The notes under the pieces: generated by a model
The model's database searches: none
What the model was told of the DNA's origin: nothing
What the model saw: the letters and a program-made list of their open reading frames with translations, nothing else
Translations under genes and position numbers: made by a program
From: Candidatus Poseidoniales archaeon
GTDB taxonomy: Archaea > Thermoplasmatota > Poseidoniia > Poseidoniales > Poseidoniaceae
Direction: 5' to 3'
Length of the DNA: 64,000 nt
Assembly: GCA_038144595.1 (NCBI GenBank)
Contig: JAYQOB010000008.1
Location: 151,871 to 215,870 of the forward strand
Part shown: positions 32,413 through 47,880 of the stretch, piece after piece
Numbering within the stretch: position 1 is the stretch's first letter
Layout: every line of letters starts with the position of its first letter

Positions 32413-32470
32413 GGTTGAAGGTGGACGGGGACCTCCTTATACCCTTTACGAACATGTTCGTGCGAACATG

Positions 32471-33115
32471 TTAGCCACTTTGGCGACGGATCTCTTCGGT
32501 AAAGGCATGAAAGACGGCCGACTCAATGCGTTGGAGTTGGTTCGATAGCGTTGATTTGGCGACGTTGAGCAGGCCGGCCAGCTCGGTCAAATTGATGCGA
32601 CGAGGTACATCCCAGTAGCCTTCGCGAGAGGCGACTTCGAAGACCTCTCGCTGACGCGGTGTCAGCAATCGAGCGCCCGTGCTTCGTGTCGAGAGAAGTC
32701 GGTGGGGGATCTCATCGCTTCTGAAACGGTTGATCAGGGCTCGCATGGTTTCGCGCGTGCCCTCAACCGTCCATTCAACCCAACCGTCTCGAACTTCGAA
32801 GGGTGTTCGCGGCACGACACCAAGGTCGACGAGCGGTCGCAGGAATCCGCCTCCACCCGCCGAGATGTTGACCGAGAAACGACCGTCTTCCGGCTCGCTG
32901 CATTCGTCGATACCGCCGTGGGCCTGCACGGTGGCGTGGATGGACTCGTTGCTCCAACAGCGAGCGGTACCGCGCCCTTTGCTCAGCGGCATGTGTTGTT
33001 CGATGCGAAGCGTTGCGGAAGGATGCTCGCGTGTCACGTCGCCAGCCCAGTGGCCTTGAGGGAGACGGACGTCGATTCGCAGCTGTTGAGCCATGGTTGC
33101 GCCTCGGTTGCTCAC
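32471..33115 (-). CDS. HTH_10 (bacterio-opsin-activator-type) transcriptional regulator
   Basis: C-terminal LTPRQREVFEVASREGYWDVPRRINLTELAGLLNVAKSTLSNQLQRIE. Confidence 0.55.
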   Translation of the reverse strand: MSNRGATMAQQLRIDVRLPQGHWAGDVTREHPSATLRIEQHMPLSKGRGTARCWSNESIHATVQAHGGIDECSEPEDGRFSVNISAGGGGFLRPLVDLGVVPRTPFEVRDGWVEWTVEGTRETMRALINRFRSDEIPHRLLSTRSTGARLLTPRQREVFEVASREGYWDVPRRINLTELAGLLNVAKSTLSNQLQRIESAVFHAFTEEIRRQSG

Positions 33116-38142: not shown

Positions 38143-38189
38143 AATTCATCCGGTCCTAGATTCTCATGAATCACAGGGTAGCGAGTGAT

Positions 38190-38245
38190 TCGAAAGCCCT
38201 GCGAGCCCTCTGATTGGGTCAAAACGAATCAGTGGGCTTGTCGGA
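38190..38245. repeat. left terminal inverted repeat of the AT-rich island, with an internal hairpin (agccctctgatt-loop-aatcagtgggct)
   Basis: ~50/55 nt match to the reverse complement of 40043-40100. Confidence 0.7.
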
Positions 38246-40042
38246 TTATCTGATTCACCCCATTGAATAAGGATTGAACAATGTACCAATTGGATTAATT
38301 AAAATTCATTCGCATTAAGCATTCGTTAGGATCATCTTGTGATTTGGGAAATGCTTGGAAAAAAGCAGAGAAATGGCCATCAGAAGATCCTGAACCTTCC
38401 GCATCTGTTGTCAAAAGAAAAGAGAGCGCTTCATCAAACATGACGCAATATCGTTTGGGATTTATTCCAACTCATGATCAAGGACAAGTCTTTCGTAATT
38501 GTTCTCCATGGACTGGGAAAAAAATGCTGGAGGGTATTTCCCGGCACTACGAGGACTTAATGGGTGCATATTGATCCCGTTGAAACCATCTTCGACGATG
38601 TTTCGACCCTTCAGTGGGCTAATGAGATGAAGAGGTGTCAATTTGATTGAGACATCAATCATAACAGATGAGATTAATCAGTCGTCTGGCAAAGGCGTTA
38701 GACAAGTGAAGAAATTCAAAATTCGATATTTCTTGCGAAAGTCAACAAATACTCAATTTGAAGAAAATTGTATTCCAAATTCAGCAACGGGAATGCACAA
38801 ATTCCATTCCTTGGATGATTTCGACTGAGTTTTGATGATTCCAACAAACAAATGCCAATGCATCAAATTCTAATCCGTTCTCGGTTTCTGCTTCCCAAGC
38901 GAGATTCACACTGAATTAGCCGAAACAAATGAACATTTAATTGTGTTGCAAATCCGTTGATATCAAAATCAACATGGCTTATTTTCGTGGTTTGGTTCAA
39001 GAACTCATGCATCAATCATTGTTGCCCATCAAAACATCCAGTTAACAATTTTCAATTTGTAATCACAAGGATTCGCAGGAAAACACCAATTCGTCGATGA
39101 ATTTGCAGCATGTTTAATGCATGGTTCAATCCGTTAATCGTTTTCTTTTAAATTCCATCACCGATGGATTTCGCTCGGCAGAAATGAGCATTTTCCTCAC
39201 GCTTAAACCAATTTTCAACAACAATCCATTGGACATGCTCCCTGCATCGTTCCATTCTTAGCACCAATTCTGATTCAGCGCTAAACCAACAATCATTATG
39301 AAAAAAAATACGTTCACTCTTTGTGATATGGAAAAGCAGATTCCAGATTGAATGGAACAAGAGGACAAGAATGTTGAAATTTGGACATGCTCATACCATT
39401 TCTTATGAAGATTAAAATCTGAACTCATATTGCAAGATTTATTTTCTTAGGGAAAATTGATGTTCCAGATTGAAATTCATCAGGTCCTGTTAATCTCAAT
39501 CCGTCAATTTTGGACTCGAAAACATTGTGTAAGCATGGAGGACTGCTCACTACACAGGAAAAACGTTATAATCTGAGCAGACAGATGAGTGAAAGGATAA
39601 ATTGGTACTCTGCCGGGATTCAAATGATTATCTCCATGGGCAAATCAATTTTTGGATCCGAGGATGGAAAGGAGAAACATCAACGAAGTATCTCTTTCTT
39701 GCTTGACCATTGTATCGGAATTTGGTTCTCATTGGTTTTTTCACACTTTTGGATTCGGGCACGAGTCCAATTCAAATTTTTCTTCGTCCCAATCATGGAA
39801 TGTGAATTTTCTTGTCGTAGTCGTATTGGCAGATCGTTCACTCTCTGGCTCCTGTAAAAACAACTCCAAAACAAGTGGCGAGAATACCTCTTCATTGGAT
39901 AAAGGGAAAAAAACGACATAAGCACATGGCTCACAATTTCTTGGAATTTAGCAAAACAAAAATCGATTCTTTTCGTCATGTTTCTGCGGCTTGCATTGGC
40001 GAAATCCGTTGATTCAATCTTTATCTAACCGAATGAGGGTCA

Positions 40043-40100
40043 ATGCACAAACCCACTGATTCGTTTTGACCTCATCAGAGGGCTCGCAGTGGGCTTTGTC
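40043..40100. repeat. right terminal inverted repeat of the AT-rich island
   Basis: Reverse complement matches 38190-38245: aaagccc..tgcgagccctctgat..ggtcaaaacgaatcagtggg. Confidence 0.7.
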
Positions 40101-40214
40101 ACTAGCCTACCGTCTGCTTAGGTCTCCACGTAGCCGGATCTTTGAGTGAGGAGGTTCCCCTCCGTCACGGCTGTGCCTTGAGAGAGACGGCGGCAGGGCG
40201 TCGAGTTGGTGAAC

Positions 40215-40538
40215 TCAGAGTTTCTCATCGCTGTTGGTCATGAAGTTGCCTTCACTGTCAACGATGATGGGCGTTCCCTCGACCCACTCAGGGCAGTTCT
40301 CTGACACCCAGGTGCGGGTGGCCCATTCACAGATGTCATAGCCGCCAGACAGGATGCCGGAGCGCTTGATGTAGCCGACCTTGACGATGTCCTTGTCCTT
40401 GGAGAGCACGTTGCCCAGCTGCTGGCTGGTGGTGCCATGACGCATGGTGCTGTTGATGTACTCCAGAATCTCTGCAGTGTTTCGTGGTCGATCGCCTAAG
40501 AATTTCTTGATTTTTTCACGGATGCGTGTTGTTTTCAT
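40215..40538 (-). CDS. small winged-helix (wHTH) DNA-binding protein (107 aa)
   Basis: TAEILEYINSTMRHGTTSQQLGNVLSKDKDIVKVG helix-turn-helix-like segment. Intermediate GC. Abuts the right IR of the island. Confidence 0.45.
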   Translation of the reverse strand: MKTTRIREKIKKFLGDRPRNTAEILEYINSTMRHGTTSQQLGNVLSKDKDIVKVGYIKRSGILSGGYDICEWATRTWVSENCPEWVEGTPIIVDSEGNFMTNSDEKL

Positions 40539-40713
40539 GGTTGGTCCCTCCTGTCATTTTTTGAGCGGCCTGATTGGAAATGTGCCACTAAGGTTGAGGA
40601 GCGAGGCCGCTGATATAATGGTTCCTCCTCGGATGAACGATTTGGTTACGTTTGATGACTCAATTGCGGTGTATTTCCAACACTGCGGTACGAATATGTA
40701 AGTTATTTTTCAC

Positions 40714-40724
40714 AGTTCCACTGG
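40714..40724. promoter_or_regulatory. perfect archaeal mini-ORB-like dyad TTCCAGTGGAA (read on the minus strand) in an AT-rich divergent intergenic region
   Basis: gttccactggaaatg. Identical to the canonical origin recognition box core bound by Orc1/Cdc6 in Sulfolobus and Pyrococcus origins. Confidence 0.45.
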
Positions 40725-40808
40725 AAATGTATAACTAAATTTAACTTCAAAGATTTTTTATTTGCAAAAGCACTGGCCAAACCACTCCCGGGCATGCCAA
40801 GGTGACTT

Positions 40809-43316
40809 GTGATGAAACATCGCACCATCCGATCAACCGCTCAACGCCAAATTCTGGTCTGGTTGCGCCATGGTCCCTCAACGGTTTCAGAGATCGCCAA
40901 GCAATTCTCCATGCGAATGCCCCACGCCTCGCTTGCATGCCGACAACTGAGAGAGGCTGGGCTGATAACACGAGACGAACGCGGAGGGCTTCGAAACGCG
41001 CCCATCTACCTGAGCCAGTTCGGTCATGAACGGCTCGAAGAGGACGCGCTCGGAAAAATGCAGCAGTATGCGGGGGCTCTCGCCTCATCTCGCCATCCCT
41101 TGGTGCTTCATGCCGATGAGACCAACGTGCTCCTTGCTTACATGGAACCCCCTGAATCCTCCTTCGTTTTCGTCGGCGAACGACCAGGTGATGGCTCCAC
41201 TTCCTCCAGTGGAAATTTAGGGGGGGCGTGGGTCTTGGCGCCACGCGATGCTGTCACGTGGTACACGCTCAGTGATGCAACCGTTTCTGCACCTCCTGCG
41301 CCGAGAGAATCCAGCACGCTGGCAGCGTTTGAATTGACGCAACAACGCATTGGTTTGGTCCGTGGCGTTGTGCTCGAGCAGCGCGGCCATCGCGGTTTGG
41401 TAGAAGGGCAGTCGTTCACCATGCGTGCACGACCAGGCCTGCCCGGCCCCTCCTTCCTCTCACAAGGTGAAGTTGAGATTGGCACCTTACCGGGGTTGAA
41501 CGAAGGCTATGCACCGTCCGGCGGACTCTTGGCCCACCTTCGGTCCGCTGCCCATCGAACCTTGTTGCTTGGAAACATCACGCATGGCGCCTTTGCGCTC
41601 AGCGACTGTCCTTCCTCCTCACCTGTGCCGTTGCCGTATGCTGTCCTGCTGCACTGGCTTGCATTGAAACACCCGCGCATGGCGTTGGCTCGGCGCCAAG
41701 AACGTTATCTTGAGTTGGTCAAGGAACTTGAGACGAAGGTCAACCAAACGACCTCATCGCTCATGCGTTCACTTCTTCTCGAGTTCGGAGAGCAACAATG
41801 GACCCATGATGTGTTGCGGCCCGGTTGGTTCAACACCCACGGTGTGGGTGAGCGAGCCGTTGTGGCTGTGCTTCACCACGTCATGGAGGTGGGTTGGCTT
41901 CCATTTGTGATGGATTGGGCCTTTGAACAACCGAATCCTCCAGTTTTGTCTCGTTGGCTCACCCACCCGGCCTGCAGAGCGGTGGTGACGCGCCATGGTT
42001 CTCTACCCGAATCAAAGGGGAGCGCCCTGTTGGTTGACGGTCAAGACTTGGGTACGGTTGACGTTGAGTTGAGCAGATCGGTGAAGTTTGACCTCAACCT
42101 GAACCTCGACGAGGTGGAGTCGAATGCTTCTCGCCAACGAATGGATGCGGTGCCGAGCAACGCAGAAGAGTTGTTGACCGCCTCAGTTCGTCATCCAGAA
42201 CAGGTGTTTTCGTCGCCTTCACCGGAGGGATTGACTGGTCAGCGCCTCACCGAAGCGCTCCACCTGTTCCCGACGGGCGATGAGGGCAGAGCCAATGAGC
42301 TGGAATCCACCGACCCACTGGCGTCGTGGATCGCCTCGCCTCCGAAGCATCGTCCTGCCCGGTGGATTCGTCTGCGAGACCGCCTTCCCGGCGGTTGGGT
42401 TGAACTGATGCCCGTCCACGATGTGCCCTTGGCCGATCTTCCCTTTGCCTTGGCTTCAGGCGGGCGTTCATGGCGGCGTCAGGCACTCCAGCGAATTCAT
42501 GCCGAGGCAGCCCACGACATCACCACCGTGCTGCGCTGGCGTCAGCATCTCCAACCGGACGACGGGCATCGTTTTGCTGTGGCCACCTGCATGCTATGTT
42601 CGCTCACCCCTTCGCTTTCAGAGCATGTTGCTCTGTTCGAGGACGCTAGTCGTGCATGGTTTGAGGCTCCCATGAACGAGCAAGATGTGTTGGAATGCCT
42701 CTTCGGGCCGTCCACAACGGGTCACGATCAGGCCTTGCTTCAGCGGTGGATGGACCGTTCCATGCTCCAGCCAAAAGGTTCCATGTTGCGTGCGTGGGCC
42801 ATCGGGTTGGGCATCGCCCAACGCCAGGAACCATGGCTGCCTGAAACAGAGCGAACCCTCATGGAAGTGCTTCCCTCGACGTGGTGGTCACCTTTTGCGC
42901 AGCGTTGGCTCACGACCCAACTGTCCAGTCAAACCGGCCGCACGTGGCTCGCCAACTTCGAGTGCAGTTGGCCTGCCTTGTTGGCCCGAGCCCACGGCGA
43001 GCGTTCCCTCTTCCCCGGCCATGCTGGTGAACACCCCGGCTTCACCCTTGACTCCACCTCGCTTCTTCCGGTTCAACTTCTGCCTGAGGGGGTTGGTAAG
43101 GCGGCATTGACGGACGTGCACGCCATGGTGCATGCGCTTGAACAGGGCGCGCCGGTCCCGGTCCTCTCGACGCATCCGTCGGCGGGTTGGCTGGTCCGTC
43201 CGGTTGAACAATGGCCCGTGTTTGGAAGGGATGTCATGGCCGTGGGGGACCCGGACATCGGCGAGGTGTTGTTCACGCGGAGCTTCCACGCCCGCCATCT
43301 ATCCTCACGCCGATGA
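40809..43316 (+). CDS. large hypothetical protein (835 aa) with an N-terminal winged-helix DNA-binding domain and no recognisable catalytic motif
   Basis: STVSEIAKQFSMRMPHASLACRQLREAGLITRDERGG (ArsR/MarR-like wHTH) at residues ~20-60. The remainder is Leu/Ala/Arg/Trp-rich with no Walker motifs. Confidence 0.55.
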   Translation: MMKHRTIRSTAQRQILVWLRHGPSTVSEIAKQFSMRMPHASLACRQLREAGLITRDERGGLRNAPIYLSQFGHERLEEDALGKMQQYAGALASSRHPLVLHADETNVLLAYMEPPESSFVFVGERPGDGSTSSSGNLGGAWVLAPRDAVTWYTLSDATVSAPPAPRESSTLAAFELTQQRIGLVRGVVLEQRGHRGLVEGQSFTMRARPGLPGPSFLSQGEVEIGTLPGLNEGYAPSGGLLAHLRSAAHRTLLLGNITHGAFALSDCPSSSPVPLPYAVLLHWLALKHPRMALARRQERYLELVKELETKVNQTTSSLMRSLLLEFGEQQWTHDVLRPGWFNTHGVGERAVVAVLHHVMEVGWLPFVMDWAFEQPNPPVLSRWLTHPACRAVVTRHGSLPESKGSALLVDGQDLGTVDVELSRSVKFDLNLNLDEVESNASRQRMDAVPSNAEELLTASVRHPEQVFSSPSPEGLTGQRLTEALHLFPTGDEGRANELESTDPLASWIASPPKHRPARWIRLRDRLPGGWVELMPVHDVPLADLPFALASGGRSWRRQALQRIHAEAAHDITTVLRWRQHLQPDDGHRFAVATCMLCSLTPSLSEHVALFEDASRAWFEAPMNEQDVLECLFGPSTTGHDQALLQRWMDRSMLQPKGSMLRAWAIGLGIAQRQEPWLPETERTLMEVLPSTWWSPFAQRWLTTQLSSQTGRTWLANFECSWPALLARAHGERSLFPGHAGEHPGFTLDSTSLLPVQLLPEGVGKAALTDVHAMVHALEQGAPVPVLSTHPSAGWLVRPVEQWPVFGRDVMAVGDPDIGEVLFTRSFHARHLSSRR

Positions 43317-43709
43317 GTTGATATGGAGTCGGCCAAAGGCCACATTACCGTACCTGCAACATCAGGCTGAGCGACTGTGAAATGAGCAATGACGTCTGAC
43401 ACCACGTGTACGGCCGCAATCGAAGACTGGGACGACCCTTCGGGGAGTGACTTCCGGTGCAAATGCGGTAAACCATCGGTGGGTTATGGGTCCTTGTGCG
43501 ACGCAAGAATGAACGCAAGACAACCACCTTACCGGACAGTACGCCCCGACACCGAGGGTCAGGCCTCGGAGGAAACTGTGAACAAGGCCGTTAGGTGTTG
43601 GGGCACAGTCCCATGATGCCCCTCTCAGCGGGAGACGGGGCGATGACCTCAAAGGCCCGTGGCTGAACCAGCCTTCATGGGAGAGGCGCCCCGCTTCAAC
43701 CGATGCTTG

Positions 43710-45813: not shown

Positions 45814-46434
45814 TCAATCGATGTTTTCGTCGCCAGGTGGGACGCGGCTGGCGTGATTCAAGGCCACACCTGCTGCCATGAGGGCGATGGTGACCGAATA
45901 CACGCCAAGGTCAATCCAGCCCTTGTTGGCGAAGCCGAAGTAGAGGTAGAACGCAAGGCCGAGCAAGAGGCACCATGCTGCCATGGTTCGCTGGCCACCG
46001 GCCACCGAGGTGTCGTTGAGGGCCGTCCACGTGTCGTTGATGAGAAGGCCACGGAACCAGTCGGCGACCGGTTGTTGTTGGTTGATGGTCCGGGTGCCCA
46101 AGGCGATGAGGCCTGCGCATCCTGCGATGAAGATGGTGTCGCCAAGGACCTCATAGTGGAAGCCATCCTTTGCCTCACCAAAGGCGGCGTTGGTGGCTTC
46201 GAAGGTGAGCAGGCCGCCCCAAGAGACGTGGTAGGTGGGGTGAATCATGCCAAACATGTTCAGAACGGCGAGCACCAAGCCCCAAAGGCCAACGCACACC
46301 ATCACGGACGCATAAACGGGCACCTTTCCGGTGGTGGATTGGGCGGTTGCATCGTCGCTCATGGGCCCTGCGACTTGCGAACTGCATTTAAGCACACCGA
46401 AACGGGCGAACGCTGGAGGAAACCGCCACCTCAC
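45814..46434 (-). CDS. hypothetical integral membrane protein
   Basis: 5-6 TM helices. Its start overlaps the orc1 stop. Confidence 0.4.
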   Translation of the reverse strand: MRWRFPPAFARFGVLKCSSQVAGPMSDDATAQSTTGKVPVYASVMVCVGLWGLVLAVLNMFGMIHPTYHVSWGGLLTFEATNAAFGEAKDGFHYEVLGDTIFIAGCAGLIALGTRTINQQQPVADWFRGLLINDTWTALNDTSVAGGQRTMAAWCLLLGLAFYLYFGFANKGWIDLGVYSVTIALMAAGVALNHASRVPPGDENID

Positions 46435-47670
46435 AACGAGGTTTGGTGGTGGTAGTTGGAATTGAACACCGTGCGCATCTCTTCCTCGGCGGTGCCCATG
46501 ATTTCACGGACGTCCACGTTGGCCGGGATGCAGGAATTGATTTCCTTGGAACGACCATAGCGGCCCTTGCTGACCGTGCGTGCGGTGACCAGACCCAGCA
46601 TGTCAAGGTTGGAGATCAAACCGGAAATTCGACGTTGGGTCAGTGGGTTTTGCCGGATGTGCTTGCAGGCTTGGCGGTAAATGTCGTACACTTGGCCGGT
46701 TTGGACGTTGCGCAACCCGTTCTGTTCGTTGAGAAGAATCGCGGCAAGCACCAGTTTTTGTTGGCTGGGGAGGGTGGCGATCACGGGCGTCATCTGGTCG
46801 GATTCAATCTGACTTTGGGCGATGCGGACGTGGTTTTGGTTTACGATGGATTCGCCGGACTGTTCGGCCTTCTCTGCTGAAATTCGCAGCAAGTCCAAGG
46901 CACAACGAGCATCGCCATGTTCCTGTGCAGCCAGCGCCGCACACAACTCGATGACACCGGGTCCAAGGGCCTCGGCGTCAAGTCCTTCTTGGGCGTTGGC
47001 GGAGAATGTCCTGAAGTTGTTCGGCGTCGTAGGGCCGGAACAGCACGTCCAACTGGCCGAGTCGAGAGCGGACACGAGGGTCAAGGAAATCCGTGAACTT
47101 GAGGTCGTTGGAAATGCCGATGACGCACGAGCGGGCGTGCTTGAGCGAGGCGTTCATGCTGGTCAAATTGTACAGCAGGTCGTCGCCAGCCTTGCGAACG
47201 AGGTGGTCAATTTCGTCGAGGACGATCACAAACACACCGCCACGGCGGTCCATTCTTCGAACAAGTTCGTTGAAGACACGGTCGGTTGGCCATCCAGTGA
47301 AGGGGATCTCATCTTGTTCAAAGTCCTCAAGCAGTGAATTTCCGATGTGGCTGAGCACCCGGTACTGCGTGTCGATTTGGCGACAATTCACCATGATGGA
47401 CTCCACCTGTCGACCCATGGTCTGACCCTTGGCTCGAAGGTGGTGGCAGACGTAATCCGTGACCGCTGTCTTTCCGGCACCTGTCACACCGTAGAGTGTC
47501 ATGTTACTGGGGATGTGGCCCTTCAGGGCTTCCCAGAGGTTGTAGGAAATTTTCTCGATCTCTTCCTGTCGGTGAGGAAGTTGAGAGGGGCGGTAATTGT
47601 GACGAAGATGTTCCTTGTTTTTGAAGAGGGTTTTCTGGGAAACAAACTTGTCGAAGATGTTGGTTTCCAT
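46431..47670 (-). CDS. orc1: Orc1/Cdc6 replication initiator, frame-shifted (CCC run at ~46990)
   Basis: Walker A LYGVTGAGKTAV, Walker B VIVLDEIDHL, sensor regions and the C-terminal winged helix (HGDARCALDLLRISAE). N- and C-terminal parts lie in ORFs 46978..47670 and 46431..47084. Confidence 0.8.
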
Positions 47671-47880
47671 TGAATTTCACCTCCCTATTTATACCAAGGA
47701 CGAGGGAGTCAATTGCCGACTCACCGCCATGAGTTGGCTGAGTCCGAGTCCCCCTTATATGCCTGTCCACGAGGAGGGATGGGAGGCCCTGATTTAGTGA
47801 AGCGTGGACTCCTCAATTGAGGATATAAAGTAAGGGGAGAACGAACGAAAATGAACACTTTCCGAGCCACAAATTTGAGT

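Follow-up and report, generated by a model that had tools for sequence, protein, structure and literature searches.

Two conserved ORB-type sites form a putative accessory Orc1/Cdc6-binding module over a divergent gene control region in Poseidoniaceae

Sequence and conservation indicate that two sites of the origin recognition box (ORB) type in a Poseidoniaceae (Marine Group II) genome are a genuine initiator-type site cluster and make up a conserved two-site module near the orc1/cdc6 gene. We suggest, with a probability of roughly 0.45, that this cluster is an accessory or regulatory Orc1/Cdc6-binding module that would lie over the control region of two divergent genes, wH835 and DUF3860; the assignment of this locus as a canonical origin is not supported. 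Marine Group II (Poseidoniales) archaea are uncultured and among the most abundant planktonic archaea, and our literature search found no paper describing replication origins of Poseidoniales.

Within the window, i.e. the whole 64-kb stretch of DNA that was analyzed, the argument concerns the following genes and sites:

40215-40538, minus strand: DUF3860 gene, encoding 107 aa, a member of the family of PDB 2OD5
40716-40728, plus strand: mini-ORB TTCCACTGGAAAT, with a near-palindromic dyad at 40716-40726 and without a G-string
40809-43316, plus strand: wH835 gene, encoding 835 aa with an N-terminal MarR/ArsR-like winged helix
41204-41226, plus strand: full ORB CTCCAGTGGAAAT-TTA-GGGGGGG, i.e. 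dyad and G-string, in wH835 codons 133-139
46431-47670, minus strand: orc1/cdc6 gene, found in a Pfam scan of the window and split by a 1-bp frameshift

Gene order around these sites is identical in 46 of 46 related genome loci and runs FBPase, MoaC, oxidoreductase, enoyl-CoA hydratase, DeoC aldolase, a variable gap, DUF3860, the spacer, wH835, DUF359, glycosyltransferase, a 206-aa gene, orc1/cdc6 and a metallo-beta-lactamase-fold gene. The ORB pair is 5.2 kb from orc1/cdc6, near to it but not adjacent, with five genes between them (wH835, a 75-aa frame, DUF359, GT2 and the 206-aa gene). The frameshift in the window copy of orc1/cdc6 lies around 46978-47084, giving 1240 bp in two overlapping frames, and reflects either a sequencing/assembly error or a pseudogene; the gene is intact in relatives, including the 96-99% identical L044, with 1239 bp encoding 413 aa, and the intact L044 copy is an NF001625 ORC1-type equivalog (504 bits).

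The first-pass annotation had placed the dyad between two winged-helix genes. For wH835 this holds, as its N-terminus matches MarR/ArsR folds and families. The AlphaFold model of wH835 has a mean pLDDT of 86.6, and the length is 834-835 aa across homologues, every named one of which comes from Poseidoniaceae, i.e. Marine Group IIa; for the remaining ~740 aa beyond the first ~100 residues neither a relative nor a solved-structure match was detected. For DUF3860 the description does not hold to the same extent, as the helix-helix-helix-strand pattern of a winged helix is seen solely in a low-confidence single-sequence model (pLDDT 53). The DUF3860 protein is 93-100% identical across the family, and that of the window is ~93% identical to the metagenome protein whose solved structure is PDB 2OD5. 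As a separate observation, synonymous sites are better conserved in the DUF3860 gene than in its neighbors (e.g. 40501-40514 and 40363-40373), 4-fold identity reaching 0.5-0.6 in distant loci compared to 0.3-0.4 elsewhere, and toward its 5' end the gene shows hardly any variation in its DNA. The DeoC-DUF3860 gap (38143-40214) is a hypervariable spot that ranges from 126 to 2073 bp in relatives and has a content non-homologous even to that of L044; it holds a 1.9-kb island of ~38% GC flanked by 43-nt inverted repeats (38199-38241 and 40047-40089). The dyad lies 627 bp from the right arm of these repeats, in agreement with the ~600 bp given in the first-pass annotation.

The dyad itself, originally reported at ~40710-40730, is present at 40716-40726 and reads TTCCACTGGAA on the plus strand and TTCCAGTGGAA on the minus strand. 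Its minus-strand reading TTCCAGTGGAACT is identical to the 13-bp mini-ORB of Pyrococcus abyssi (PMC1904270), and the dyad core TTCCA-N-TGGAA with the GGAAA[C/T] extension of the published consensus (PMC4153887) is present at 40716-40728 and at 41204-41216. A full ORB was distinguished from a mini-ORB by a G-string 3-4 nt past the dyad; the dyad at 40716-40726 is followed by GTATAAC and no G-string and thus falls into the mini-ORB class. The claim that it exceeds chance is borne out: TCCANNGGAAAT has two copies in 64 kb compared to 0.15 expected, both inside 500 bp, and the dyad is positionally conserved across Poseidoniaceae. The core TCCA-NN-GGAAAT, which is common to the intergenic and the coding site, is found 92-95 bp upstream of wH835 in 43 of 47 related loci, the remaining four retaining GGAAAT only; relative to the wH835 start, the mini-ORB is at -92/-93 in 42 of 46 loci and at -95 in L047, the most divergent homologue locus (33% protein identity). 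In a 46-sequence alignment T157, C158, A160, G163, G164, A165, A166, A167 and T168 are invariant and the dyad center is variable (CT, GT, AT, CC, CA or GC), and neutral sites are saturated in the Poseidoniaceae genomes compared. Shuffle and expected counts together with the conservation in 47 loci exclude chance. As judged by these comparisons, the dyad is a conserved ORB-type (mini-ORB) element of the kind bound by Orc1/Cdc6 and is under selection. Copies of TGGAAAT at 40575 (plus strand) and 40673 (minus strand) were considered as extra half-sites; they are unconserved beyond the closest relatives and were not counted.

The dyad had been described as the only perfect copy, which is correct for the exact 11-mer, but CTCCAGTGGAA with a G-string at 41204-41226 had been overlooked. 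This second site lies 488 bp downstream of the mini-ORB in the same orientation and reads CTCCAGTGGAAATTTAGGGGGGG as a whole, the G-string part TTA-GGGGGGG occupying 41217-41226; in shuffles of the window the full-ORB pattern has 0.00 expected matches. All 46 genome loci carry the site at +396, and L047 carries it at +405. Both its sequence and its G-string spacing agree with the Methanomassiliicoccales ORB GTTCCAGTGGAAATGG-AGGGGT; compared to the pan-archaeal consensus CTTCCAGTGGAAACGAAAGGGGT it is shorter by one base (PMC4153887). In a pattern scan of metagenome contigs with TCCANTGGAAAYNNRGGGGG, at least 120 loci were obtained. Among the matches listed, 16 adjoin orc1/cdc6 genes of other archaea, which argues that a pattern of this type is a valid ORB signature; also among the matches listed, 11 correspond to the wH835 coding site, some of them in homologues with as little as 27-35% identity, and 9 belong to a second Marine Group II locus, described below. 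No ORB-type sites beyond the two within 500 bp were found in the 64-kb window, and no third G-string site was found within +/-10 kb in 47 loci. The sequence TTCCGGTGCAAAT at 43452 was considered as a third ORB and is positionally conserved, but it lies inside a separate conserved element and was rejected.

The coding ORB encodes S133-x-G135-N-x-G138-G139. The coding part of wH835 is too divergent for a global MAFFT alignment (-700..+1000), and codon usage was followed by protein-guided codon analysis. Across 47 genomes the codons TCC, GGA, GGG and GGG at the site are fixed, with shares of 1.00, 1.00, 1.00 and 0.98, respectively, whereas the other 55 of the 59 invariant degenerate-codon positions in wH835, which served as a control, use three to six codons with a top-codon share of 0.28-0.87. 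The encoded loop (residues 128-135) is of low confidence and predicted to be disordered in the AlphaFold model. Because synonymous codons are frozen only here and the loop is disordered in the model, we conclude that the sequence of the coding ORB is set by the DNA element and not by the protein.

The spacer between the two divergent genes (40539-40808) is, as first described, 270 bp long and AT-rich, with 57% A+T compared to ~41% in the window, and the segment around the mini-ORB (40690-40800) has 65% A+T. It comprises the following elements:

40582-40745, no strand assigned: conserved non-coding core of ~165 bp, from the alignment
40597-40628, minus strand: near-invariant 32-nt block, reading GGAGGAACC-ATTATATC-AGCGGCCTCGCTCCT on that strand
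40729-40745, plus strand: GTATAACTAAATTTAAC, two TAAC motifs 10 bp apart, abutting the mini-ORB
40746-40808, plus strand: variable stretch with a TATA-like TTTTTATTTG and a Shine-Dalgarno-like AGGTGA (40800-40805), for wH835

The core is made of the blocks GTGCCRCT, AGGAGCGAGGCCGCTGATATAATGGTTCCTCC, ACGATTTGGTTAC, TTGRTG, GGTGT-N7-ACAY, GTAAGT and CAC-N-GTTCCANTGGAAAT-NN-ATAACTAAA-N-GTAAC, and its identity in distant loci is 0.64-0.72, compared to 0.25-0.45 at 4-fold sites of the flanking genes and 0.25-0.40 in the rest of the spacer. We infer that the block at 40597-40628 is the BRE/TATA promoter of the DUF3860 gene. In the TAAC motifs T172, A173, A174 and C175 as well as A183, A184 and C185 are invariant or nearly so in the alignment, and GGTTAC at 40644-40649 is an inverted copy of the motif; the variable stretch is A+T-rich in its left part only. 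Roughly 30-45 bp separate the mini-ORB from the TATA-like element downstream of it, at a fixed distance to the wH835 start codon, and its position among other conserved blocks is typical of a control region. As to an unwinding element, the A+T-rich segment around the mini-ORB is to be set beside the 478 bp between the two ORBs, which have 46% A+T and are mostly coding, and conserved blocks fill most of the spacer. By its pattern of conservation, the spacer appears to be composed of promoter-like blocks rather than of a free AT-rich unwinding element. A scan for bacterial-type promoters and terminators, which is not applicable to archaea, found nothing.

The second ORB locus of Marine Group II is found upstream of a beta-CASP RNase gene, in the interval that separates this gene from a small ferredoxin gene. 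It consists of two full ORBs that are inverted, with their G-strings pointing outward, and separated by 131-143 bp of unconserved sequence with 66-74% A+T (measured in seven loci). The loci are:

L176, 4840-5025
L177, 315-500
L109, 1900-2090
L053, L061, L077, L170 and L173

The pair occurs in Thalassarchaeaceae and also in Poseidoniaceae (L176 and L177), where the spacer is ~135 bp long and AT-rich by inspection, e.g. ACCCCTGTGTTTCCACTGGAGC ... ATTCCAATGGAAATACAGGGGTC. The coding ORB of several wH835 loci is identical over 19-20 nt to the ORBs of the beta-CASP locus, and this match suggests that the same protein binds at both loci. No initiator gene was found within 5-6 kb of the beta-CASP locus. 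The 64-kb window contains no beta-CASP gene and, therefore, the beta-CASP locus lies outside the window. We suggest that this inverted pair, seen in other Poseidoniaceae genomes, is the leading candidate for a main origin and more likely than the wH835 locus to act as such.

Combining the site, codon and spacer data, we infer that Orc1/Cdc6 would bind at both sites of the wH835 locus and would have a regulatory or accessory role there. The mini-ORB and the coding ORB bracket the putative wH835 promoter and the winged-helix-encoding part of the gene. In the mechanism that we propose, (i) Orc1/Cdc6, encoded 5.2 kb away, would bind the full ORB tightly and the mini-ORB weakly or cooperatively, (ii) the resulting initiator-DNA complex would cover the divergent wH835/DUF3860 control region, (iii) this complex would either couple the expression of wH835 and DUF3860 to the level or state of the initiator or constitute an accessory initiator-binding cluster, and (iv) the inverted pair at the beta-CASP locus, in another part of the genome, would more likely serve as the main origin.

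Alternatively, the locus could be an active chromosomal origin, main or second, at which Orc1/Cdc6 bound to both ORBs would unwind the AT-rich stretch by the mini-ORB and load MCM. We regard this as less likely, though it is the strongest competitor of an accessory role and several observations that count against the latter speak for it. Proximity to an orc1/cdc6 gene is a classic origin hallmark, and the locus lies 5.2 kb from a slow-evolving, conserved ORC1-type initiator gene within a block of conserved gene order, the beta-CASP locus being the one with no initiator gene within 5-6 kb. The two ORB-type sites lie inside 500 bp and nowhere else in 64 kb, so that a cluster of at least two sites is present; the near-palindromic dyad can be read on the minus strand, which would give an inverted pair with the coding ORB; and 40690-40800 reaches the 65% A+T noted above. 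Moreover, ORBs adjoin orc1/cdc6.1 in the related Methanomassiliicoccales (PMC4153887), and the presence of two Orc1/Cdc6 paralogues in Marine Group II (PMC3914693) makes two origins plausible. Against an origin, there are just these two sites, with no third G-string site in the surroundings; both are conserved in plus polarity rather than inverted, and one is coding; the sequence between them is mostly coding and of 46% A+T; and the intergenic blocks show sequence conservation, in contrast to the AT-rich beta-CASP spacer, which varies freely. The GC-skew check proposed in the first-pass annotation gave no signal: neither GC skew nor 4-fold-site skew corrected for gene strand switches at the locus in the 64-kb window, a weak test over this length. 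The canonical inverted pair occurs elsewhere in the family. The original suggestion of an origin is thus upheld as far as an ORB-type element, a full-ORB partner under DNA-level selection and an orc1/cdc6 gene 5.2 kb away are concerned, but weakened by the two same-orientation sites, one of them coding, by the promoter-like spacer and by the inverted pair elsewhere. The bolder proposal that in Marine Group II the wH835/DUF3860 locus functions as a second origin, or as a cell-cycle switch operated by Orc1, is slightly less probable still. If true, the high-affinity site of the initiator would form part of the coding sequence for a lineage-specific winged-helix protein, the SSGNxGG loop of this protein would be dictated by a DNA site, and both flanking DNA-binding-type proteins would be origin-associated factors.

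The palindrome could also be an operator of wH835 or DUF3860 involved in autoregulation, its likeness to an ORB being non-functional. Dyads of this kind are common binding sites of MarR/ArsR-type regulators in the promoters of their own genes, and here a palindrome with a variable center is present in the promoter region of the regulator itself (-92 from wH835), at a fixed distance upstream of its start and in the divergent control region flanked by two genes for putative DNA-binding proteins. We nevertheless consider an operator improbable, since it would leave unexplained the second core with a G-string at canonical ORB spacing and frozen codons inside the gene, as well as the identity of the coding site with the beta-CASP-locus ORBs; in addition, wH835 has no Cdc6-type winged-helix match, and the asymmetric extension GGAAAT, conserved in the dyad, is a feature of ORBs. 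Least probable by far is that the unusual conservation of the spacer stems from a structured RNA, a small protein-coding gene or chance. The RNAalifold consensus had an energy of -8.7 kcal/mol and a covariation term of -0.65, a helix scan was empty on both strands, i.e. neither consensus structure nor covariation was found on either strand, and the spacer has no Rfam match; a frame of 27 codons, open in the window, has in-frame stop codons in many relatives; and chance is ruled out by the counts and the conservation in 47 loci given above. Given these comparisons, we favor the accessory or regulatory module.

The sites of the wH835 locus have the same core, TTCCA-N-TGGAAA[C/T], as the archaeal ORBs of Sulfolobus oriC1/oriC2, Pyrococcus oriC and Methanomassiliicoccales. 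In contrast to origins with such ORBs, the locus has only one mini-ORB and one full ORB, in the same polarity and 488 bp apart, one of the sites is coding, and the initiator gene lies 5.2 kb away instead of adjoining the cluster. In a canonical oriC an AT-rich unwinding element lies between inverted ORBs, an arrangement that in Marine Group II is found at the ferredoxin/beta-CASP locus; the wH835 locus lacks all three features of the latter, i.e. two full inverted ORBs, an unconserved spacer, and a length of 131-143 bp at 66-74% A+T. A single mini-ORB is only a weak Cdc6 binding site in Pyrococcus (PMC1904270). A precedent for an accessory role of the wH835 locus is provided by dp1, the gene of the PolD small subunit in Thermococcales, in which ORB/mini-ORB repeats lie inside or adjoining a coding gene a few kb from cdc6/orc1; the position of this cluster is conserved across the order, and it is bound by Cdc6 in vivo and in vitro and is not the mapped initiation site (PMC1904270). 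The likeness consists in coding-gene ORBs near an initiator gene. However, the dp1 cluster is inside the same 5-kb region as oriC, whereas the canonical inverted pair of Poseidoniaceae is at a separate locus, and the host gene encodes a polymerase subunit in one case and an uncharacterized winged-helix protein in the other. In Sulfolobales the Orc1 paralogue Orc1-2 is described as a transcription regulator (PMC9738581). On that description, an initiator-family protein acts at promoters and non-origin loci, as we propose for the wH835 locus, although the element considered here is an origin-type ORB and is known from its sequence. Similarly, bacterial DnaA boxes outside oriC, such as datA and those in the dnaA promoter, are initiator sites used for regulation or titration.

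ORBs, mini-ORBs and an ORB cluster embedded in a coding gene were known already; new are the arrangement and the lineage, i.e. a mini-ORB upstream of a putative promoter together with a full ORB dual-coded in a disordered loop, conserved in a family that has the inverted pair elsewhere. The two conserved ORB loci make origin usage testable from metagenomic coverage profiles, the coding ORB is predicted to illustrate cleanly how an overlapping DNA-binding site fixes the sequence of a protein segment, and wH835 and DUF3860 become candidates for replication-linked functions.

Other conserved elements were observed in the window. In the wH835-DUF359 interval (43346-43600, plus strand), at least 80% of 22 distant loci share identical blocks of 13-27 nt, despite saturated synonymous sites, and a 75-aa frame overlaps the interval. 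Its consensus folds with -67.7 kcal/mol on the plus strand compared to -44.1 on the minus strand and includes a GACCCTTCGGGG hairpin; no Rfam match was found at E<=1, and the interval is a candidate for an unannotated structured RNA. In the spacer upstream of orc1/cdc6 (47671-47880), the 31-mer GAGTCCGAGTCCCCCTTATATGCCTGTCCAC (~47740-47770) is invariant across the family and adjoined by a hairpin with compensatory changes (GAGTC/GACTC in the window, GGTTG/CAACC in L010 and GGTCC/GGACC in L021); this block is probably the orc1/cdc6 promoter with a structured 5' leader. Canonical ORBs were looked for in the same spacer, directly upstream of orc1/cdc6, and none was found. Finally, upstream of a PaaA/PaaC-like gene, TACGAACATGTTC ... 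CGAACATGTTAG at 32447-32474 comprises two conserved GAACATGTT(C) palindromes that are probably a regulator binding site.
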